The notes below the pieces were generated by a model that was not told the DNA's origin, made no database searches, and saw only the letters and a program-made list of their open reading frames with translations. A program made the position numbers and the translations under genes. A stretch of DNA of 64,000 nucleotides, taken from IMG/VR virus record IMGVR_UViG_3300020213_000031; one strand, 5' to 3'. How positions within the stretch are numbered: position 1 is the stretch's first letter; each line of letters opens with the position of its first letter. Shown piece by piece: positions 1-54,889 of the stretch. The stretch is from a virus.

Positions 1-193
1 GGAGCTTTTGTGGTGATATAGTACCTTCCTCATTTATAAATGGATTCACTTATATTACCACACATTCTTAGCATCCCAATGCTTCTTTCTCTCTCTTGCT
101 TATCTCCAAGGGATCGCATGGTGCCAGTGATTGCAGCATGTCTTTCGATTGCATGTGTTGTGTGTTGGCAGATGTGTGCAGCCTTGGGTGGAT

Positions 194-362
194 GTTCCAT
201 GTGTTCACTCACGATTGAATGCTGTGAGGGGTTGGCCTTCAGCGATGTTGAGCAGTCGAGGCATTGCCTGTGTTCCATGTGTTCACTCACGATTGAATGC
301 TGTGAGGGGTTGGCCTTCAGCGATGTTGAGCAGTCGAGGCATTGGCTGTGTTCCATGTGTTG
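194..362. repeat. 78-bp tandem direct repeat, about 2.2 copies (copy1 194-271, copy2 272-349, partial copy3 350-362)
   Basis: Unit gttccatgtgttcactcacgattgaatgctgtgaggggttggccttcagcgatgttgagcagtcgaggcattgcctgt recurs with 1 mismatch; seen directly. Confidence 0.85.
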
Positions 363-746
363 GTTGGCATTCTAATGCTGCGGGGAGTTAGCCTTCTGCG
401 ATGTTGTGCGCACAGATCCTTGTGTCATCTGAGTGGGATGTTGCGGGGTGTTGCGTAACGGAGCCAAGATAGATGGATGTGTTGGGAGGGTGTGGGGGCG
501 GTTGGGGGAGGTTAGAAGGAGAGGGGGTGAGTACACTCATCGAGAGCTGGTCGGCGAGGAACCTTACGGCAGATACCTTCGAGAATTGGGGAGAATGAAC
601 CCCAACGGGTGACATACTTCAGAGTCTCGGGCCAGTGCTCTGAATCGTCTTCTGTGATGTGTTTTCCATCCAGGTCGGAATGAAAGCCAGTTTTAAGTCG
701 TTTGGTTTTGATCGGAGTGAATAGATCCATTGCAGGAATTCTCTCA

Positions 747-1260: not shown

Positions 1261-1657
1261 GCAGCCGTTAAGTGCCAGCCAGAGGCGAGCCATAGCGGCG
1301 AAACTGGAGCGTAGGAAGGCGAGGGACTCTTGGGCCGTCATGAAGCTAATGGTGCCGTGTGAGAAGAAAGAGAAGAAGGATCAAAATACTCGGTGAGCCG
1401 AAGACTGAGATGCCTGTACAGCCCATCAATATTCCGATAGTGAAGAGTATGGGGTATCATGGTGGTGGCGGGGACGACTTCTACCTCACTTCAGCATATT
1501 GCGACCGAGATCAGATTCAGTGGATTTATCATCGAGAAATCGCTCGCGGGTTGTCGACCCCCGAACGCATGAGGTGTGATTGCTGTGGTGCAGACTTATA
1601 CGTTTCTAAAAACAACGGTCAATTCATGTCGTCCACAACGATTCCAGAGGTCGTTGG

Positions 1658-2668
1658 ATGGGTAAGGCACGAGAGCAGCAAAATCCTAACCTTGGCCCTT
1701 ATCGAATCGAGCTTAGAGATAACAAGGGACGTTTTACCCGACTTTATTCGAAGGCACGATTTTTCAGGGCGTATTTCCAAAATAAAGCTATATCAAAGCT
1801 CCTACGCTTCCCCGATGGTTGGCTCGTCAAACAAAAACGAGCTTCTGTCGAACTTACAACTTCTCGACACACTAAGCGTTATTTTAAAAAAGAAAAAGAA
1901 GCTAAAGATCGTCGTAAGGGAAGAAAAGCTGGAAGAAAGCCCGCTGTTCGTAAGCCCAGCGTTGAGGAAGAAGCACGAGAAACAGTTGCGGAGCTACCTC
2001 GAGAACGCCCGGAGAATGTCATCCAAACGGAAGACGACGACTTCTTCTGGTCCAGAGTTGAAGCTCTCCGCGACCGACTTGAAGACATTGAGCGAATCCC
2101 TGGACAAGCATCTAAACTCATTTTTCCAATGGAAGCGTCGAGCAGGGGTGTCGCAGCCCATCCCATGAAGCGGCTGGATAAGAAGACGAACAAGTGGGTT
2201 GTCGACAGGGGAAATGTTTTTAAGCGACTTCTGAGTGGCGGGGCGAAGAAGAGGAATCTTATATGGTGGGCAGCGAAGACCTTTTTACAAAAGCTAGGAA
2301 CAAAATACTTCGAGACGGTGGCGCGTCGTACTTCCAAAAGAACTTTATCTTTCCGGGTGTTTCTAACGACAAACCTTCCAAAGCACGAGGAAGTTCTGAT
2401 GGCTCCAGCGGGAGTTCACAGCATAATTTACGATCGAGCGGTAACAAACAAAAAGCTAATGCTCGAAAGAATGACGAGCCAGTTGGTGGCAGGCATTATG
2501 CGCTCTCTCTACAAGGGCGAGGCTTATCCAGAACTGTCGCTAACGAGTTCAGGCGCATTCTTTCAGGTGATACCAGAGTCCGCGAAGTCGATTGGGAAAA
2601 GCTCGACAAAGACCCAGAACTTCAAGCTAGCCTTTACGATTTTCTTGGAAGAGGAATTCTCAAGATAA
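1658..2668 (+). CDS. basic (K/R-rich) hypothetical protein immediately upstream of and overlapping polB; terminal-protein candidate
   Basis: Positional analogy to TP genes upstream of protein-primed polB; overlaps alternative frame 1359-2168 and polB start; boundaries uncertain. Confidence 0.3.
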   Translation: MGKAREQQNPNLGPYRIELRDNKGRFTRLYSKARFFRAYFQNKAISKLLRFPDGWLVKQKRASVELTTSRHTKRYFKKEKEAKDRRKGRKAGRKPAVRKPSVEEEARETVAELPRERPENVIQTEDDDFFWSRVEALRDRLEDIERIPGQASKLIFPMEASSRGVAAHPMKRLDKKTNKWVVDRGNVFKRLLSGGAKKRNLIWWAAKTFLQKLGTKYFETVARRTSKRTLSFRVFLTTNLPKHEEVLMAPAGVHSIIYDRAVTNKKLMLERMTSQLVAGIMRSLYKGEAYPELSLTSSGAFFQVIPESAKSIGKSSTKTQNFKLAFTIFLEEEFSR

Positions 2669-4644
2669 CGAATATCCCCAAGATTCCCTGCCAATATGAG
2701 CCATCAGATAAATTGTATTTAGGCTTAGACACAGAGGACAACTCTAACGGGATTCCACACTTTTACCAGATTGCAACGAGAGATTGCGTTTATATCTGTT
2801 CAAGCTTTCGCGCTCTCTTCAGATACGTCATTCAAGAGTACAAACTCAATTATCGCAATCACGTTGTCTTTGGCACTAACATTGAGTACGAGCTTGGAAA
2901 TATTCTTAAAGACTTTGATGCAAGCCCGGAGACAATGGACATCAAATGGCGCAGGGGCAGGCTAACCAAGTTTGCTTTATCTTACGATCCAGAATTGGCT
3001 TATTGGGGCCGTGACGACGACCGCAAGGGTAAGATGGTTTTTTGGGATACGATGAACCATTGGCCTATGAGCGTCACCAAGATGGGTGAATCGCTAAAAG
3101 AGCATCTTGGCACCGATCTTACAAAACTAGATCGAGATTTCTATGGTTTCAAGTACGCCGCGATGGACGCGATCATTTCTAGGTCTTACGCCTGCATCCA
3201 GCGAGCATATTACGAGAAGAAGGGTATCAAGCTAAAGGCGACGCCAGGATCGACAGCTCTCTGCGTATACGATCAAGGGGTCGGCAAGACGAAGTTCCGC
3301 TCGGAGCGGATCAGGCAAACCCACACACCTGAAGACATTGAATGGATCATGGAGGGGTTACGAGGCGGCAGGACGGAAGTTTTCTCCACGCGAAAGCATT
3401 ACGGGAACGTTGAGTATCTGGACATCAACAGCGCCTATCCATTTTCGATGAAGCATGGAGTGTTCCCAAACCTCATGCAGCACTTCTGGATAGAAGGAGA
3501 TAAAGAAATCAGGGAGTGCATCGACGCCGATTACGAGGGGATGGTTGAATGTGACGTTGAGGCGATAAACCTTCACCCGTTCACGATGATTTACCCGTAT
3601 CTCGGATACAAGGACAACGATACGCAAAGATTCTTTTTCCCTCTCGGAAAATGGAAATCTAAATACACTTTCTTTGAAATCAGAAATGCGGAGAAGCTCG
3701 GATACAAGTTCAAGTTCAGAAAAGCGATCGTCTATGAAAGATGCAAGAAGCATCCATTCCAGAAGTACGTTGATTTTTGCTACGCGATCAGGATGGAGGG
3801 GGACGCAACGAAAAACAAACTCCTTAAAGACGTGGGCAAGTCTTTGGGAAATAATTTGTATGGTAAGTGGGGAGAGCGACAGATTTTCTCCACTCTGGTC
3901 GACCCAGGAAAGTATAATGCCGACGATTTAATCTCATGCGCCAGAATTGGAACAGGCGTTGTGATGGAAGAGGACGAGGGTTACGCCTCTCACACGAACG
4001 GGATTTGGGGTGCCTACATCACAGCAATTTGTCGTGACCTTCTTTATCAGCACATGGTTAGCGCGTGGAATGAAGGCAACGTGATTCTTTACGTCGACAC
4101 TGACGGAATCTTTATCACTGGCGGGAAATTGCCAAAGAATGATCCCGTCAAGCTTGGCGCCTTGAAGCATGAAGGCACTCTTTACTATTTCAGAGCGTAC
4201 TTGCCGAAGCAGTATGAGTATCAATATTTGGATGAGGCTACAGGCTTTGGACGCGTAAATCCAAAAACTGGAAAAACAGAAACAGTTTACAAAGCTAAAG
4301 GTATTCCAGAATTTTACGATATTGTGAATGAGAAAGGTGAAGCCATTCTCGATGCGAACGGGGTTCCAAAGAAGGGGAATTTACGGGAGAAGTTTTTCGC
4401 TACAGGGGAAGCGGACTTTAGGAAGCCGTTGAAGGTTCGGGAAGCGATACGTCGCAAGAAATTCAAAGACCCCAACATCAATCCTGGAATCGACGCGATC
4501 AACGCATGGATTTCTGTAAAGAAAGAGTTGCGCGGGCACCTTACAAAGAGGACGGTGCTCAAGAACGGCTGGACGCTGCCGCTTTGGATTTCAATGAAGC
4601 AGCCTGATTGGTACAGTCCCCCAGAAATGTTCTGTAAGGATTGA
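2263..4644 (+). CDS. family B DNA polymerase with 3'-5' exonuclease, protein-primed (phi29/PRD1-like) type
   Basis: Exo I YLGLDTEDN, Exo III YAAMD, motif A YLDINSAYPFSM (Dx2SLYP-like), motif B KSLGNNLYGKWG (Kx3NSxYG), motif C ILYVDTDGIFI (YxDTDS), KxY-like KQYEY. Confidence 0.85.
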   Translation: MVGSEDLFTKARNKILRDGGASYFQKNFIFPGVSNDKPSKARGSSDGSSGSSQHNLRSSGNKQKANARKNDEPVGGRHYALSLQGRGLSRTVANEFRRILSGDTRVREVDWEKLDKDPELQASLYDFLGRGILKITNIPKIPCQYEPSDKLYLGLDTEDNSNGIPHFYQIATRDCVYICSSFRALFRYVIQEYKLNYRNHVVFGTNIEYELGNILKDFDASPETMDIKWRRGRLTKFALSYDPELAYWGRDDDRKGKMVFWDTMNHWPMSVTKMGESLKEHLGTDLTKLDRDFYGFKYAAMDAIISRSYACIQRAYYEKKGIKLKATPGSTALCVYDQGVGKTKFRSERIRQTHTPEDIEWIMEGLRGGRTEVFSTRKHYGNVEYLDINSAYPFSMKHGVFPNLMQHFWIEGDKEIRECIDADYEGMVECDVEAINLHPFTMIYPYLGYKDNDTQRFFFPLGKWKSKYTFFEIRNAEKLGYKFKFRKAIVYERCKKHPFQKYVDFCYAIRMEGDATKNKLLKDVGKSLGNNLYGKWGERQIFSTLVDPGKYNADDLISCARIGTGVVMEEDEGYASHTNGIWGAYITAICRDLLYQHMVSAWNEGNVILYVDTDGIFITGGKLPKNDPVKLGALKHEGTLYYFRAYLPKQYEYQYLDEATGFGRVNPKTGKTETVYKAKGIPEFYDIVNEKGEAILDANGVPKKGNLREKFFATGEADFRKPLKVREAIRRKKFKDPNINPGIDAINAWISVKKELRGHLTKRTVLKNGWTLPLWISMKQPDWYSPPEMFCKD

Positions 4645-25968: not shown

Positions 25969-26045
25969 GGCCCAGTAGCTCAGATGGTCAGAGCGGCTGT
26001 TTTCAACTCAGTGCGTCGCGGATTCGAATTCCGCCTGGGCCTCCA
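25969..26045 (+). tRNA. tRNA with anticodon UCA (opal/UGA-reading; tRNA-Sup or Trp/other-UCA), CCA encoded
   Basis: Perfect 7-bp acceptor GGCCCAG/CTGGGCC, D-arm GCTC-AGATGGTCA-GAGC, anticodon loop TTTCAAC (U33, A37), T-arm GCGGA-TTCGAAT-TCCGC, discriminator U, CCA. Confidence 0.8.
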
Positions 26046-51794: not shown

Positions 51795-52975
51795 TTGACC
51801 TCCTCCCCATGCCTAAAGGCAGGGGATTCCCTTAAGCGACGTTAGCCGCTCTTAGCGTATCAAGTCCGATACGGAGGATATTTTTTGCGGCGTTAACATC
51901 TCTGTCGTGTTGACAGGAACACTCGCTGCAAATCCATCCTCTAATTCCAAGACCACTTGGTCCGCTCGGTCCAGTCTTTTTAAGACAAGAAGAGCAAGTG
52001 ATCGTAGAAGCAAACTCTGATACATCAACAACCAACCCCTGGTGCCTTATGGCTTTTTGCTTCAGGATCTGGCGGAACATTCCGGTAGATGCATCTTGTG
52101 AACTTTTACCATGCGACGCTTGCAGGAACTTCCCGCTTACGTCGCCAACAAATATTGTTTTATACTTTCTGGCTAACTCCAAAGTTTTCTTGTGCAGAAA
52201 GTCTTTGCGGATATTTTTAATCTTTGCAGACAGCTTTTGCGCCTGTCTTTTCTTTCGGTGTCTCTGAAAACCGGCCAGCTTATTCTCATGCTTTAAAAAG
52301 ATTCTAGGGTTTTCAACTTTGCTACCGTCGCTTAACACAGCGATATCTTTCAATCCTAAATCAACCCCAACAGCGTCGATTGCGTGGCTTGTTTCGATAG
52401 TGGGAGTTTCAGCGACTAAGTTAATATACCAGTGGCCCCGAGCATCTTGCGAGAAGGAGCCGCACTTGATCTTACCTGGCAGGTCCCGTGACTTCCAGAA
52501 CTTGAAAGCTTGCTTGGCGTAGGTAGCTTTATTGCCATCAATTTTTACACCGGTTGCTTTAAAGGGCACCCAGCCTAGAGACTTCTTTGACCCGCTAGAT
52601 GCCCGCCAGCGAAGTTTTCTCTTCTTAAATTGTATTCTGCGGGTTGCGTACTCTTCTCCAATCGCCTGAACTGTTTGCGAATGAAGCCCTATCTCTTTCC
52701 CGGCACCTGCGGTCAAGTAGTTGAGGTCAAAACCAGATAGGAAGTCCGAGTGATTTCTAATGGCGTTGAAGCTTGTTTCGTTGCAGAAATTCCACACAAA
52801 GTTAACCGATTTAGAAAGGGCAGAAAGCTTTCTACAAGAGAACCCTCCCTTAATTCGGTAGCGATATGTTAACATCATGGAAGCCTTGTAACGTACAATG
52901 TCGATAGAGTCAAGAAGGAAGTACGCCTTATATCCCCACGCCTAAAGGCGGGGGTTTTACGGCGGCGCTGATAAA
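51795..52975 (-). mobile_element. IS200/IS605-family element carrying only tnpB (IS1341-like); boundaries approximate
   Basis: Imperfect subterminal hairpins CCCCATGCC-TAAA-GGCAGGGG (51805-51825) and CCCCACGCC-TAAA-GGCGGGGG (52934-52954) flank tnpB. Confidence 0.6.
51832..52878 (-). CDS. tnpB: TnpB (IS605 OrfB) RuvC-like RNA-guided nuclease
   Basis: RuvC-I GVDLGLKDIAV, RuvC-II-like FVGDVS, zinc finger CSSC...CSECSC, RuvC-III HDRDVNAAKNI. Confidence 0.8.
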   Translation of the reverse strand: MMLTYRYRIKGGFSCRKLSALSKSVNFVWNFCNETSFNAIRNHSDFLSGFDLNYLTAGAGKEIGLHSQTVQAIGEEYATRRIQFKKRKLRWRASSGSKKSLGWVPFKATGVKIDGNKATYAKQAFKFWKSRDLPGKIKCGSFSQDARGHWYINLVAETPTIETSHAIDAVGVDLGLKDIAVLSDGSKVENPRIFLKHENKLAGFQRHRKKRQAQKLSAKIKNIRKDFLHKKTLELARKYKTIFVGDVSGKFLQASHGKSSQDASTGMFRQILKQKAIRHQGLVVDVSEFASTITCSSCLKKTGPSGPSGLGIRGWICSECSCQHDRDVNAAKNILRIGLDTLRAANVA

Positions 52976-53712: not shown

Positions 53713-53907
53713 TTAAATCTTGATCGACTCAATATCCCGATCGAAAATTGTCTTTCGACCGTCTTTCCTCGCGTTCTCAATCGCTTTATCGAGAACAACC
53801 CTGATGAGATTGGACAAGGCTTCTGGCGCCGCTCCGCTCGTGTTCATGCTGCCCTTGTTCTTGATGTATGCTTTCACCTTTGAAACCGTGACCAAAACTT
53901 CGCTCAT
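53713..53907 (-). CDS. histone-fold protein (archaeal/bacterial HMfB/HBb-like histone)
   Basis: 64 aa; ...LSNLIRVVLDKAIENARKDGRKTIFDRDIE aligns to the histone-fold L2/alpha3 signature A..AGRKT...DIE; AAGGAG RBS. Confidence 0.55.
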   Translation of the reverse strand: MSEVLVTVSKVKAYIKNKGSMNTSGAAPEALSNLIRVVLDKAIENARKDGRKTIFDRDIESIKI

Positions 53908-53924: not shown

Positions 53925-54370
53925 AATGGTGTACCCGGCGAGAATCGAACTCGCGTCCTAAAGTTTTTTCATTCTACAGTCGACATGTTTTTGCGCCCAA
54001 GGCGACACCGAAGTGTCGGGTGGAGATTAAAATCTAGGGGTCTTTCAACCCCCAGACCAGGGCGACCGATTTCTCGGCCACCTCCACCAACCAGATTCTT
54101 ACGATAAGCTCTGGCAAGCTCCCTGCACTTTCCTTCTTGCGAAGTGGACTGCACTACCATTTTTGCCTTTCTTCTTTAACTGGCGCTCAGGCGGCACCAC
54201 AGTCTTCCGTTTTTAGGCGGCGAACTGAAGAGCCGTAGCATTGCTGCCACGGTTCTTGCGAATCACGAAAGATTCAGCATTTACATTTGCGTCCAGATGA
54301 TAACTCAACAAGTACGCCTCTGAGACATGCAGTAGAATTTCCAAACTCCAGTCGAAACCAATTCGGGCAC
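53925..54370 (-). ncRNA. ssrA: tmRNA (ssrA)
   Basis: 5' GUGCCCGAAUUGGUUUCGACUGG and 3' GGACGCGAGUUCGAUUCUCGCCGGGUACACCA match the tmRNA tRNA-like domain; acceptor GUGCCCG/CGGGUAC pairs; internal ORF ending ...ALQFAA-stop. Confidence 0.85.
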
Positions 54371-54610
54371 TTTTAAAATCAACTGAAGAGAGAAGTACCG
54401 GCTGCTCTTAACGCTGGGCCAGCGCAGAGCTTGGCTTGACTCGCATTAATCTTGTACTTCAAAAACCGAACTCTCAAATTGCCTCGATCGACCACCTGCC
54501 GGTCCTCGACCAAACCAACTGCAAGCACTTCTTCTCTCCTCAATTCATTTCAAAATCGTCTAAACACCATTAACATTTCCAAAAAAATAAGCAAGAAATA
54601 TTTCTTACTT

Positions 54611-54889
54611 TTATTCGCTCCCACCACTCGGCGGCTCGATGAAGACGCCCGACTCGCCCTCTATCTCTGTAATCTTTTTTCTACAATAAATACACAGTCT
54701 AATTTTTTTCGTCGCCATGATCCACTTCTTACAATCCGGCCCTAAGCATTGTTTCCTTTTCTCCGGATCGCCCTCGGCGAAGGAAACAAATTGGTGCTTT
54801 TCGACATTTCTCCGATTGCGTTGTTTCAACATCATTCTGGCTAGGATAAGCCATGCAGTGAAACTGTCAACGATTTTGTTGCTTTTCAA
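54611..54889 (-). CDS. zinc-ribbon hypothetical protein
   Basis: CLGPDC...CIYC motif. Confidence 0.35.
   Translation of the reverse strand: MKSNKIVDSFTAWLILARMMLKQRNRRNVEKHQFVSFAEGDPEKRKQCLGPDCKKWIMATKKIRLCIYCRKKITEIEGESGVFIEPPSGGSE

Follow-up and report, generated by a model that had tools for sequence, protein, structure and literature searches.

A one-piece tmRNA gene as accessory cargo of a divergent phage-like element

A tmRNA gene on the minus strand

The stretch of DNA analysed here (hereafter "the window") comprises 64,000 nucleotides (nt) of a ~68-kb viral contig (IMG/VR record IMGVR_UViG_3300020213_000031), and all gene and repeat searches reported below apply to these 64 kb. Its minus strand carries, at positions 53927–54370, a one-piece transfer-messenger RNA (tmRNA, ssrA) gene of 444 nt (encoded CCA included), which we hold very probably to be a genuine tmRNA gene that belongs to a mobile element. 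This assignment draws on a match to Rfam family RF00023, on the stability of the predicted fold, and on copies of the gene in six other contigs. The Rfam search (cmscan) recovered RF00023 at exactly these coordinates with 67.2 bits, against a gathering threshold of 47 (E-value 5.1e-24), and the alignment spans model positions 1–374 of 374, i.e., the gene is not truncated. The architecture is one-piece and not permuted. At a lax Rfam threshold, the tmRNA was the sole meaningful RNA match between 51.5 and 55.2 kb, and no riboswitch or other RNA was found adjoining it at E ≤ 1, bar a sub-threshold HgcC-like match at the 3' end of a nearby tnpB gene (see below).

A sequence-only reading of the window had proposed a minus-strand tmRNA of ~445 nt at 53925–54370, with GUGCCCGAAUUGGUUUCGACUGG and GGACGCGAGUUCGAUUCUCGCCGGGUACACCA as its 5' and 3' ends. 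The gene, its strand and both quoted ends are correct (the two strings are exact in the sequence), while cmscan moves the start to 53927 and the length to 444 nt. That a tmRNA covariance model would recognise the locus was likewise borne out, RF00023 scoring above threshold.

The tRNA-like domain, the fold and the tag frame

The tRNA-like domain is closed by a 7-bp acceptor stem, in which the 5' strand GUGCCCG (54364–54370, minus strand, as are all tmRNA parts below; G1, U2 and G3) pairs with the 3' strand CGGGUAC (53931–53937). The pairs G1-C72, U2-A71 and G3-U70 are followed by four further G-C or C-G pairs, and the 3' strand continues into the discriminator A73 and an encoded CCA (53927–53930), the whole 3' segment (53927–53937) being aligned at posterior "*" by Rfam. 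G3:U70 is completely conserved in tmRNAs as the determinant for alanyl-tRNA synthetase (AlaRS; PMC3985003). Next to the stem lies the D-loop-like segment AAUUGGUUUCGAC (54351–54363), on the SmpB-binding side of the tRNA-like domain, which aligns to the Rfam consensus AucuGGaUUCGAC with high posterior. On the 3' side, a T-arm GCGAG-UUCGAUU-CUCGC (53938–53954), whose loop is of the GUUCRANYC type, is aligned with top posterior.

Inward of this domain runs a long, interrupted P2 helix, in which the 5' segments UGGAGUUUG.. and AUUCU.. pair with the 3' segments ..AGAAU and AAACUUUA; this helix appears in both the minimum-free-energy (MFE) and the centroid fold, and its pairing is identical in the Rfam alignment. 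The MFE fold yields the acceptor stem, P2 and the T-arm, and folds the body into several stable hairpins capped by GNRA or UUCG loops. Its energy of -168 kcal/mol compares with -138 +/- 6 kcal/mol for shuffled sequences (z = -4.7), none of the 100 shuffles being equally stable. Ahead of the tag, a candidate first pseudoknot (PK1, 54289–54324) was drawn by hand, with stems S1 (CUCA/UGAG) and S2 (GCGU-CU/GG-ACGC) that interleave as an H-type pairing. S2 is also present in the MFE fold; PK1 is without covariation support because all homologues are nearly identical.

The tag frame (54213–54278) extends from a GCU resume codon (54276–54278) to a UAA stop (54213–54215) and encodes the peptide AESFVIRKNRGSNATALQFAA, as read from the Rfam alignment, a relaxed ARAGORN run and translation. 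It comprises 21 codons ending in ..ALQFAA, followed by UAA, and in the MFE fold this stop codon sits in a hairpin loop. The Ala-Ala C-terminus is the part of the tag recognised by proteases in E. coli. The resume codon is preceded by a single-stranded 10-nt spacer, AAAUGUAAAU (54279–54288), with U at -5 and A at -4, which we take to correspond to U85 and A86 of E. coli tmRNA. Positions -6 to +1 are known to set the resume frame (PMC3985003), and the commonest tmRNA tag length is 10 aa (PMC11915505).

The sequence-only reading had given the internal open reading frame (ORF) as GCA...UUC GCC GCC UAA. Its in-frame ending stands, and the tag end ..ATALQFAA is correct by translation, but GCA does not hold as the resume codon. 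It lies four codons upstream of GCU, in frame and largely inside the 3' strand of the hand-drawn PK1, and GCU is the likely resume codon, being favoured by the Rfam alignment and by ARAGORN at a very relaxed setting (ps80), which found the resume consensus and AESFVIRKNRGSNATALQFAA while misplacing the tRNA-like domain. Judged by its sequence, the window RNA groups with the tmRNAs in covariance-model score, tRNA-like domain, P2 helix and mRNA-like domain, with PK1 as a candidate.

Copies, relatives and a cargo slot

To place this gene among its relatives, we refer to other contigs by their L numbers. A 64-aa histone-fold gene just downstream of the tmRNA was found on eight metagenomic contigs from several samples, one of them 67.9 kb long and one recorded as a microbial-mat metagenome, and six of these eight also contain the tmRNA, 100% identical in all six. 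In a mosaic relative (L158), the tmRNA differs by two structure-neutral substitutions, one in P2, where U-G replaces a U-A pair, and one in the T-loop. More distant relatives of the element were reached through its GP88 protein (L175/L176, L177 and L178, 75–87% identity) and through a 622-aa protein (L174, a 78-kb contig, 45%). Gene order is common to the window and these distant relatives, and L175, L177 and L178 keep the genes flanking the tmRNA; the tmRNA itself was not found in the covered regions of the distant relatives, these three included. Beyond this group, blastn of the tmRNA against 50,697 GenBank phage records revealed no similarity, a megablast search of GenBank phages with 20 kb of the window gave no match, the exact 5' and 3' tmRNA patterns had no match in IMG/VR, and IMG/VR protein searches with the DNA polymerase and the DUF5661 protein returned no relatives. 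The window tmRNA is a sequence orphan.

Locally, the tmRNA sits in a slot between two minus-strand border genes. The upstream border is a 92-aa ORF (54611–54889; 55–56% identity to L175 and L177 by tblastn), and the downstream border is the 64-aa histone-fold gene (53713–53907), which starts 19 nt past the CCA of the tmRNA, with a ribosome-binding site GGAG in the spacer. Its product matches the Protein Data Bank (PDB) chains 8FVX/8CMP (E-value 2e-12 over 59 aligned residues), which are presumably the Bdellovibrio bacteriovorus histone Bd0055. Viral histones of the Bd0055 type have already been described (bioRxiv 10.1101/2024.12.06.627149). In L175, homologues of the 92-aa protein (55%) and, at the same position as in the window, of the histone (59%) enclose a 177-aa ORF (1595–2128, minus strand) with a faint DUF2726 match, where the window has a 49-aa ORF and the tmRNA. 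Because L175 keeps the border genes around another gene, the slot behaves as an exchangeable cargo site, and the tmRNA is swappable accessory cargo inside a conserved element synteny.

The slot begins (54549–54615, minus strand) with an AT-rich hairpin and U-run, including a terminator-like palindrome at 54584–54615, followed by a conserved motif of ~48 nt. This motif, which is 85–90% identical over 41–48 nt to L175, L176 and L177, is the only DNA similarity that blastn detected in the slot; it comes after the terminator-like hairpin and may be a promoter. A sigma-70 scan found nothing convincing at the motif, and neither a sigma-70 promoter nor a GC-rich terminator was detected adjoining the tmRNA. 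The different content of the slot in L175, the closest tmRNA-less relative, suggests that the position downstream of this conserved motif holds variable cargo. Between the motif and the tmRNA, the 49-aa ORF (54379–54528, minus strand) has a ribosome-binding site, stops 8 nt before the tmRNA 5' end, and was called as a gene in L002 and L003; it is 100% conserved in L158, had no match in a family search, and represents a genuine small gene or else a piece of the pre-tmRNA leader.

The carrier element and the host attachment-site alternative

The carrier is a very divergent phage-like mobile element of ~64–68 kb, with a protein-primed type-B DNA polymerase (PolB) and no integrase. Across 116 ORFs, the Pfam scan yielded 23 families in all, i.e., DNA_pol_B_2 (protein-primed type), GP88, Glyco_hydro_25, LysM, Peptidase_M15, HTH_3, Metallophos, Band_7, DUF5661, IS605 OrfB/TnpB and a few others. 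No integrase, recombinase, resolvase, DDE or SmpB family and no evident bacterial housekeeping family was among them. Matches to PHROGs covered 53 families at E < 1e-5, including endolysins, HNH endonucleases, a NinI-like phosphatase, a pyrophosphatase, and tail-fibre and head-decoration-like domains, and GP88 homologues occur in 268 GenBank phage records, from phages of many hosts. The 793-aa polymerase (2263–4644, plus strand; DNA_pol_B_2, E-value 5e-29) has its nearest GenBank phage relatives in tectiviruses and small archaeal viruses, at 25–28% identity. Such a protein-primed enzyme is unusual for an element of at least 64 kb, and would fit a linear, non-integrating replicon; no terminal inverted repeat is visible within the window.

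Islands and prophages often integrate at ssrA (PMC11915505; PMC9004378), and we therefore considered whether the window spans a phage-host junction, with the tmRNA as a host chromosomal gene serving as bacterial attachment site (attB) and a prophage inserted at its 3' end. The IS605-type tnpB that lies ~1 kb downstream of the tmRNA could also be counted in favour of this origin. The last 17–26 nt of the tmRNA, however, occur only once in the 64 kb, even at 2–3 mismatches, no long direct repeat in the window involves the gene, and the 116 ORFs include no integrase, recombinase or DDE family. Furthermore, phage families lie on both sides, with GP88 and DUF5661 on the 5' side and, on the 3' side, a phage-type pyrophosphatase and a plus-strand module with tail-fibre-like and LysM proteins, whereas bacterial housekeeping families and smpB were detected on neither. 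The genes bordering the tmRNA are syntenic in L175 with other cargo between them, and the tnpB element is polymorphic as an insertion and has no connection with the tmRNA. An attB origin is thus largely refuted, and we regard it as very improbable.

The unique 3' end, the lack of an integrase, the phage-type flanks and the L175 synteny together uphold the earlier proposal that this ssrA is phage-borne rather than a host attB. The individual observations behind that proposal also stood: phage-like genes occur on both flanks (GP88, DUF5661, endolysins, HNH endonuclease, protein-primed PolB), and no integrase is visible in the Pfam scan. The check that it had suggested for a second copy of the 3' end found none. 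The window also lacks a recognisable smpB, both by Pfam and by tblastn with an E. coli SmpB query, a result that we count as favourable to a phage-borne gene.

The tnpB gene (ORF 51832–52878, minus strand; domains OrfB_IS605 and Cas12f1-like TNB in Pfam) is the only gene of a 1,175-bp IS200/IS605-type element at 51795–52969, with sub-terminal hairpins CCCCGCCTTTAGGCGTGGGG and CCCCTGCCTTTAGGCATGGGG at its ends. It is precisely absent from L002 and L004, two otherwise ~99.9% identical contigs, and therefore represents an insertion polymorphism in the phage population. The HgcC-family RNA match (17.8 bits, sub-threshold) overlies the 3' end of tnpB, which is the expected site of a guide (omega) RNA. 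Homologues of TnpB reach at most 47% identity and are spread over several phyla; as clues to the host, the homologues of TnpB, PolB and GP88 were all uninformative.

No terminase large subunit, portal or HK97-fold major capsid protein was recognised by Pfam, PHROGs or a PDB sequence search, which is why we call the element "phage-like" and do not file it as a tailed phage (Caudoviricetes). In the co-directional plus-strand module at 25984–47928, only LysM/baseplate-like and tail-fibre/head-decoration-like domains were seen. The first protein of this module is the 622-aa protein mentioned above, for which 11 relatives were found among 5.8 billion proteins; it was rejected as a terminase candidate, since it aligns as a coiled-coil, proline-rich protein. 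A 339-aa capsid candidate was likewise set aside, its single-sequence AlphaFold model being unusable (predicted local distance difference test score, pLDDT, of 51.6). Near the start of the window, three tandem 78-nt repeats lie inside an ORF (193–426, plus strand), the second and third being 99% and 67% identical to the first, and two independent short-read contigs (L170 and L171) stop at the same point, window position 699, as might be expected if the assembly breaks or some feature of the genome lies close by.

Proposed function of the phage-borne tmRNA

Taken together, the sequence points to a bona fide and probably functional one-piece tmRNA that the divergent phage-like element carries as accessory cargo, and we consider this probable. 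That it would perform trans-translation with host factors also seems likely to us, as the sequence has intact elements for its processing, for alanine identity, for setting the frame and for ending the tag. In such a scheme, the RNA would be transcribed within the minus-strand block of small genes and excised like a tRNA, by RNase P at the 5' end and by 3' trimming to the encoded CCA. Host AlaRS would then charge it with alanine via G3:U70 and A73, and host SmpB, invoked here because the element encodes none, would bind it. Once EF-Tu had brought it to ribosomes that are stalled on mRNAs broken or lacking a stop codon, translation would switch to the GCU codon, add the 21-codon tag ending in ..LQFAA, and terminate normally at UAA, so that the ribosome would be freed and the tagged product probably marked for proteolysis. 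The likely gain to the phage would be extra ribosome rescue during infection, when mRNA decay raises the non-stop load.

Several observations weigh against this interpretation. ARAGORN did not call the tmRNA at default or mildly relaxed thresholds, so that the check with this program, which the sequence-only reading had also proposed, gave a divided answer (no default call, and the tag recovered only at the very relaxed setting, where it is labelled "Tag not identified"). In the region expected for pseudoknots PK2 to PK4 or their replacements, the Rfam posterior is low, with a 148-nt unaligned insert, and the fold shows stable GNRA- and UUCG-capped hairpins. Divergent homologues were not found in our searches, which leaves the body structure without covariation support. 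Close relatives lack the tmRNA at this position, so the gene is dispensable. Lastly, the acceptor stem has U2:A71 in place of G2:C71, a pair written in upper case (strongly conserved) in the Rfam consensus. In E. coli, the 2:71 pair contributes to recognition by AlaRS, and charging of the window tmRNA could thus be weaker. This pair, the 444-nt length and the 21-codon tag are the three unusual features of the gene.

Most of these points would also suit a captured, non-functional ssrA relic, or a neutral hitch-hiker, picked up by recombination or imprecise excision (the latter noted as a source of ssrA fragments in prophages, PMC9004378): relatives have the same slot without a tmRNA, the 2:71 pair is deviant, the body is over-long and poorly aligned, and ARAGORN rejects the RNA by default. 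The gene is nonetheless full length, with its functional elements intact, an encoded CCA, and an open tag frame ending in AA-stop, and it leaves little space to its neighbours, the upstream ORF ending 8 nt before it and the downstream gene starting 19 nt after it. The gene is also identical in six other contigs from several samples, the sole variant having two structure-neutral changes, and its RNA is strongly structured, with several tetraloop-capped hairpins. We therefore find a relic unlikely.

Alternatively, the RNA could be a mimic that acts against host trans-translation, either by titrating SmpB or AlaRS or by adding a non-degradable tag. There is a precedent in mycobacteriophage DS6A, whose molecule consists of the tRNA-like domain only and is reported to inhibit tmRNA on expression in E. 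coli, perhaps through SmpB titration (PMC4131195; PMC11915505), and both the 2:71 pair and the tag of the window tmRNA (..LQFAA, 21 codons, not identified by ARAGORN) differ from the usual forms. Unlike the DS6A molecule, however, the window tmRNA retains its mRNA-like domain in full, with the resume codon in proper context and Ala-Ala at the end of the tag, and its sequence bears no sign of a lost rescue function. Such an antagonist appears distinctly improbable, and a functional tmRNA serving ribosome rescue is the interpretation that we favour.

The element also encodes a 77-nt tRNA with anticodon UCA (25969–26045, plus strand; ARAGORN and Rfam), in which CCA is encoded, the discriminator is U, and the anticodon stem has a U-U mismatch at its base. 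Despite the label "SeC" given by ARAGORN, an identity as a selenocysteine tRNA was rejected, as this tRNA has ordinary dimensions. A homologous, syntenic tRNA(UCA) is found in L174 (9693–9769), with 59 of the 77 positions identical and compensatory changes in the stems. Recoding of TGA in the element was likewise rejected, since many genes stop at TGA, in several cases where stop and start codons overlap as ATGA. Read-through by nonsense suppressors feeds trans-translation (Ueda 2002, as reported within PMC3985003). We infer that this opal-decoding tRNA might be a functional partner of the tmRNA, in that the element's tRNA(UCA) may, by causing read-through, increase the non-stop load.

The same acceptor stem in other viral tmRNAs

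We scanned IMG/VR and metagenomes with degenerate patterns for the start (GUGCCCGA) and end (CGGGUACA) of the tmRNA, patterns that select for the GUGCCCG/CGGGUAC stem. The stem occurs on at least four viral tmRNA bodies that are unrelated to one another. Besides that of the window, they include the tmRNAs of L009 and L017 (the latter on a 318-kb contig; tag ANDNSEYSYAQAA), a family in L036, L159, L163 and L165 (tags such as ANDNVEFDYALAA), whose members examined are without an encoded CCA, and the tmRNAs of L030 and L034, which are 412 and 482 nt long and lie beside a GOLLD RNA. All share with the window tmRNA an identical 7-bp stem (U2:A71, G3:U70) and a similar D-like loop, and their Rfam tmRNA scores are above or close to the threshold. 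In their T-stems and P2 helices both strands differ in sequence and are still paired, and their bodies, at 15–28% identity, are no closer to that of the window tmRNA than shuffled sequences are (~26%).

It is possible to imagine that the GUGCCCG/CGGGUAC stem marks virus-adapted tRNA-like domains, which would pass between unrelated phages or be favoured in them again and again, although we regard this idea as unlikely. Because the search patterns themselves selected for the stem, these matches demonstrate neither common descent of the same-stem tmRNAs nor a viral enrichment of the stem. A scan of bacterial genomes, with a 5' pattern that was too degenerate, contained 0 tmRNAs among the 120 matches listed, and blastn of two other viral tmRNAs of this GUG type against GenBank phages gave no match. 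If the idea were true, such a stem could allow escape from a host factor that targets the acceptor end of host tmRNA or tRNA-Ala, or could reflect an altered use of AlaRS or SmpB, and the window tmRNA might couple to the tRNA(UCA), absorbing the cost of read-through.

The scans brought up further observations on these contigs. In L030 (5966–7384) and L034 (1–4895), the GOLLD RNA (214–259 bits), tRNAs and the long tmRNA lie within ~1.5–5 kb; the tag has 28 codons and ends in ..EFAVAA or ..EFALAA, and ARAGORN misses both tmRNAs. A member of the L036 family in L164 (1199–1560) has its T-arm and acceptor 3' strand replaced by an unrelated ..GGATCGTTCCCTGCTACCTCCAC between homologous flanks, so that the acceptor stem cannot pair and Rfam makes no call; recombination may have produced this form, or the copy may have been inactivated. 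The 24-mer GTGCCCGAACTGGTTTCGATTGGG, which forms the 5' end of the L009 and L036 tmRNAs, was also present in three soil metagenome contigs (L162, L166 and L168), ~130 nt upstream of an integrase-like ORF and with no tmRNA downstream, and L160 has the first 23 nt of the window tmRNA, likewise without a tmRNA. These four matches could be att-site remnants or chance.

Comparison with known tmRNAs

Catalogues of phage-borne ssrA genes go back to at least 2014 and list cluster-C-type mycobacteriophages and Bacillus phage G, as well as DS6A, which has the tRNA-like domain only (PMC4131195). Published carriers include mycobacteriophages Bxz1, Catera and their relatives as well as phage G (PMC4131195), the OM43 phage Melnitz and pelagimyophages (PMC9004378), and huge phages, where tmRNA and SmpB accompany other translation factors that rescue stalled ribosomes (PMC7162821). 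An ARAGORN survey detected ssrA in 402 of 18,146 phage genomes, i.e., 2.3% (PMC9004378). The earlier description of phage tmRNAs as rare thus means ~2.3% of sequenced phages, with many published cases: they are already known, and the window gene is a new, somewhat odd example rather than a new kind.

It leaves the current view of trans-translation unchanged, and adds one more sequence-orphan phage-borne tmRNA, here in a mid-sized, protein-primed element rather than a huge phage. Its significance lies in part in detection, as ARAGORN-based surveys, the source of the 2.3%, can miss long or deviant phage tmRNAs such as this one. The comparison with the L175 slot further shows the tmRNA exchanged like other accessory ("moron") cargo and, if functional, the gene would show how much drift in the 2:71 pair and in tag length nature allows while host AlaRS, SmpB and proteases are still used.

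Compared to bacterial one-piece tmRNAs (E. coli SsrA), the window tmRNA is alike in its acceptor stem with G3:U70, A73 and CCA, its T-arm and degenerate D-loop, its P2 helix, a candidate pre-tag pseudoknot (hand-drawn here), its GCN resume codon after U-5 and A-4, its Ala-Ala tag end, and a stop codon in a hairpin loop (in the MFE fold). It differs in its location on a mobile element with no smpB nearby, in U2:A71, in its 21-codon tag (against the commonest 10 aa), and in its length, i.e., 444 nt against the 374-position RF00023 model, with the 148-nt insert. The ssrA 3'-end fragments found at att sites are similarly tmRNA-derived sequences inside mobile elements, whereas the window gene is complete (model positions 1–374), unique and without an integrase. 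Like the published phage tmRNAs, it is a complete ssrA with no sign of integration, and the role proposed for those, the upkeep of a hijacked translation apparatus, may apply likewise here. Unlike that of Melnitz, it is one-piece, not permuted, and has no detected riboswitch; and whereas some huge phages pair their tmRNA with an SmpB of their own, the carrier here is mid-sized (~64–68 kb), encodes a protein-primed PolB, and would rely on the SmpB of its host.

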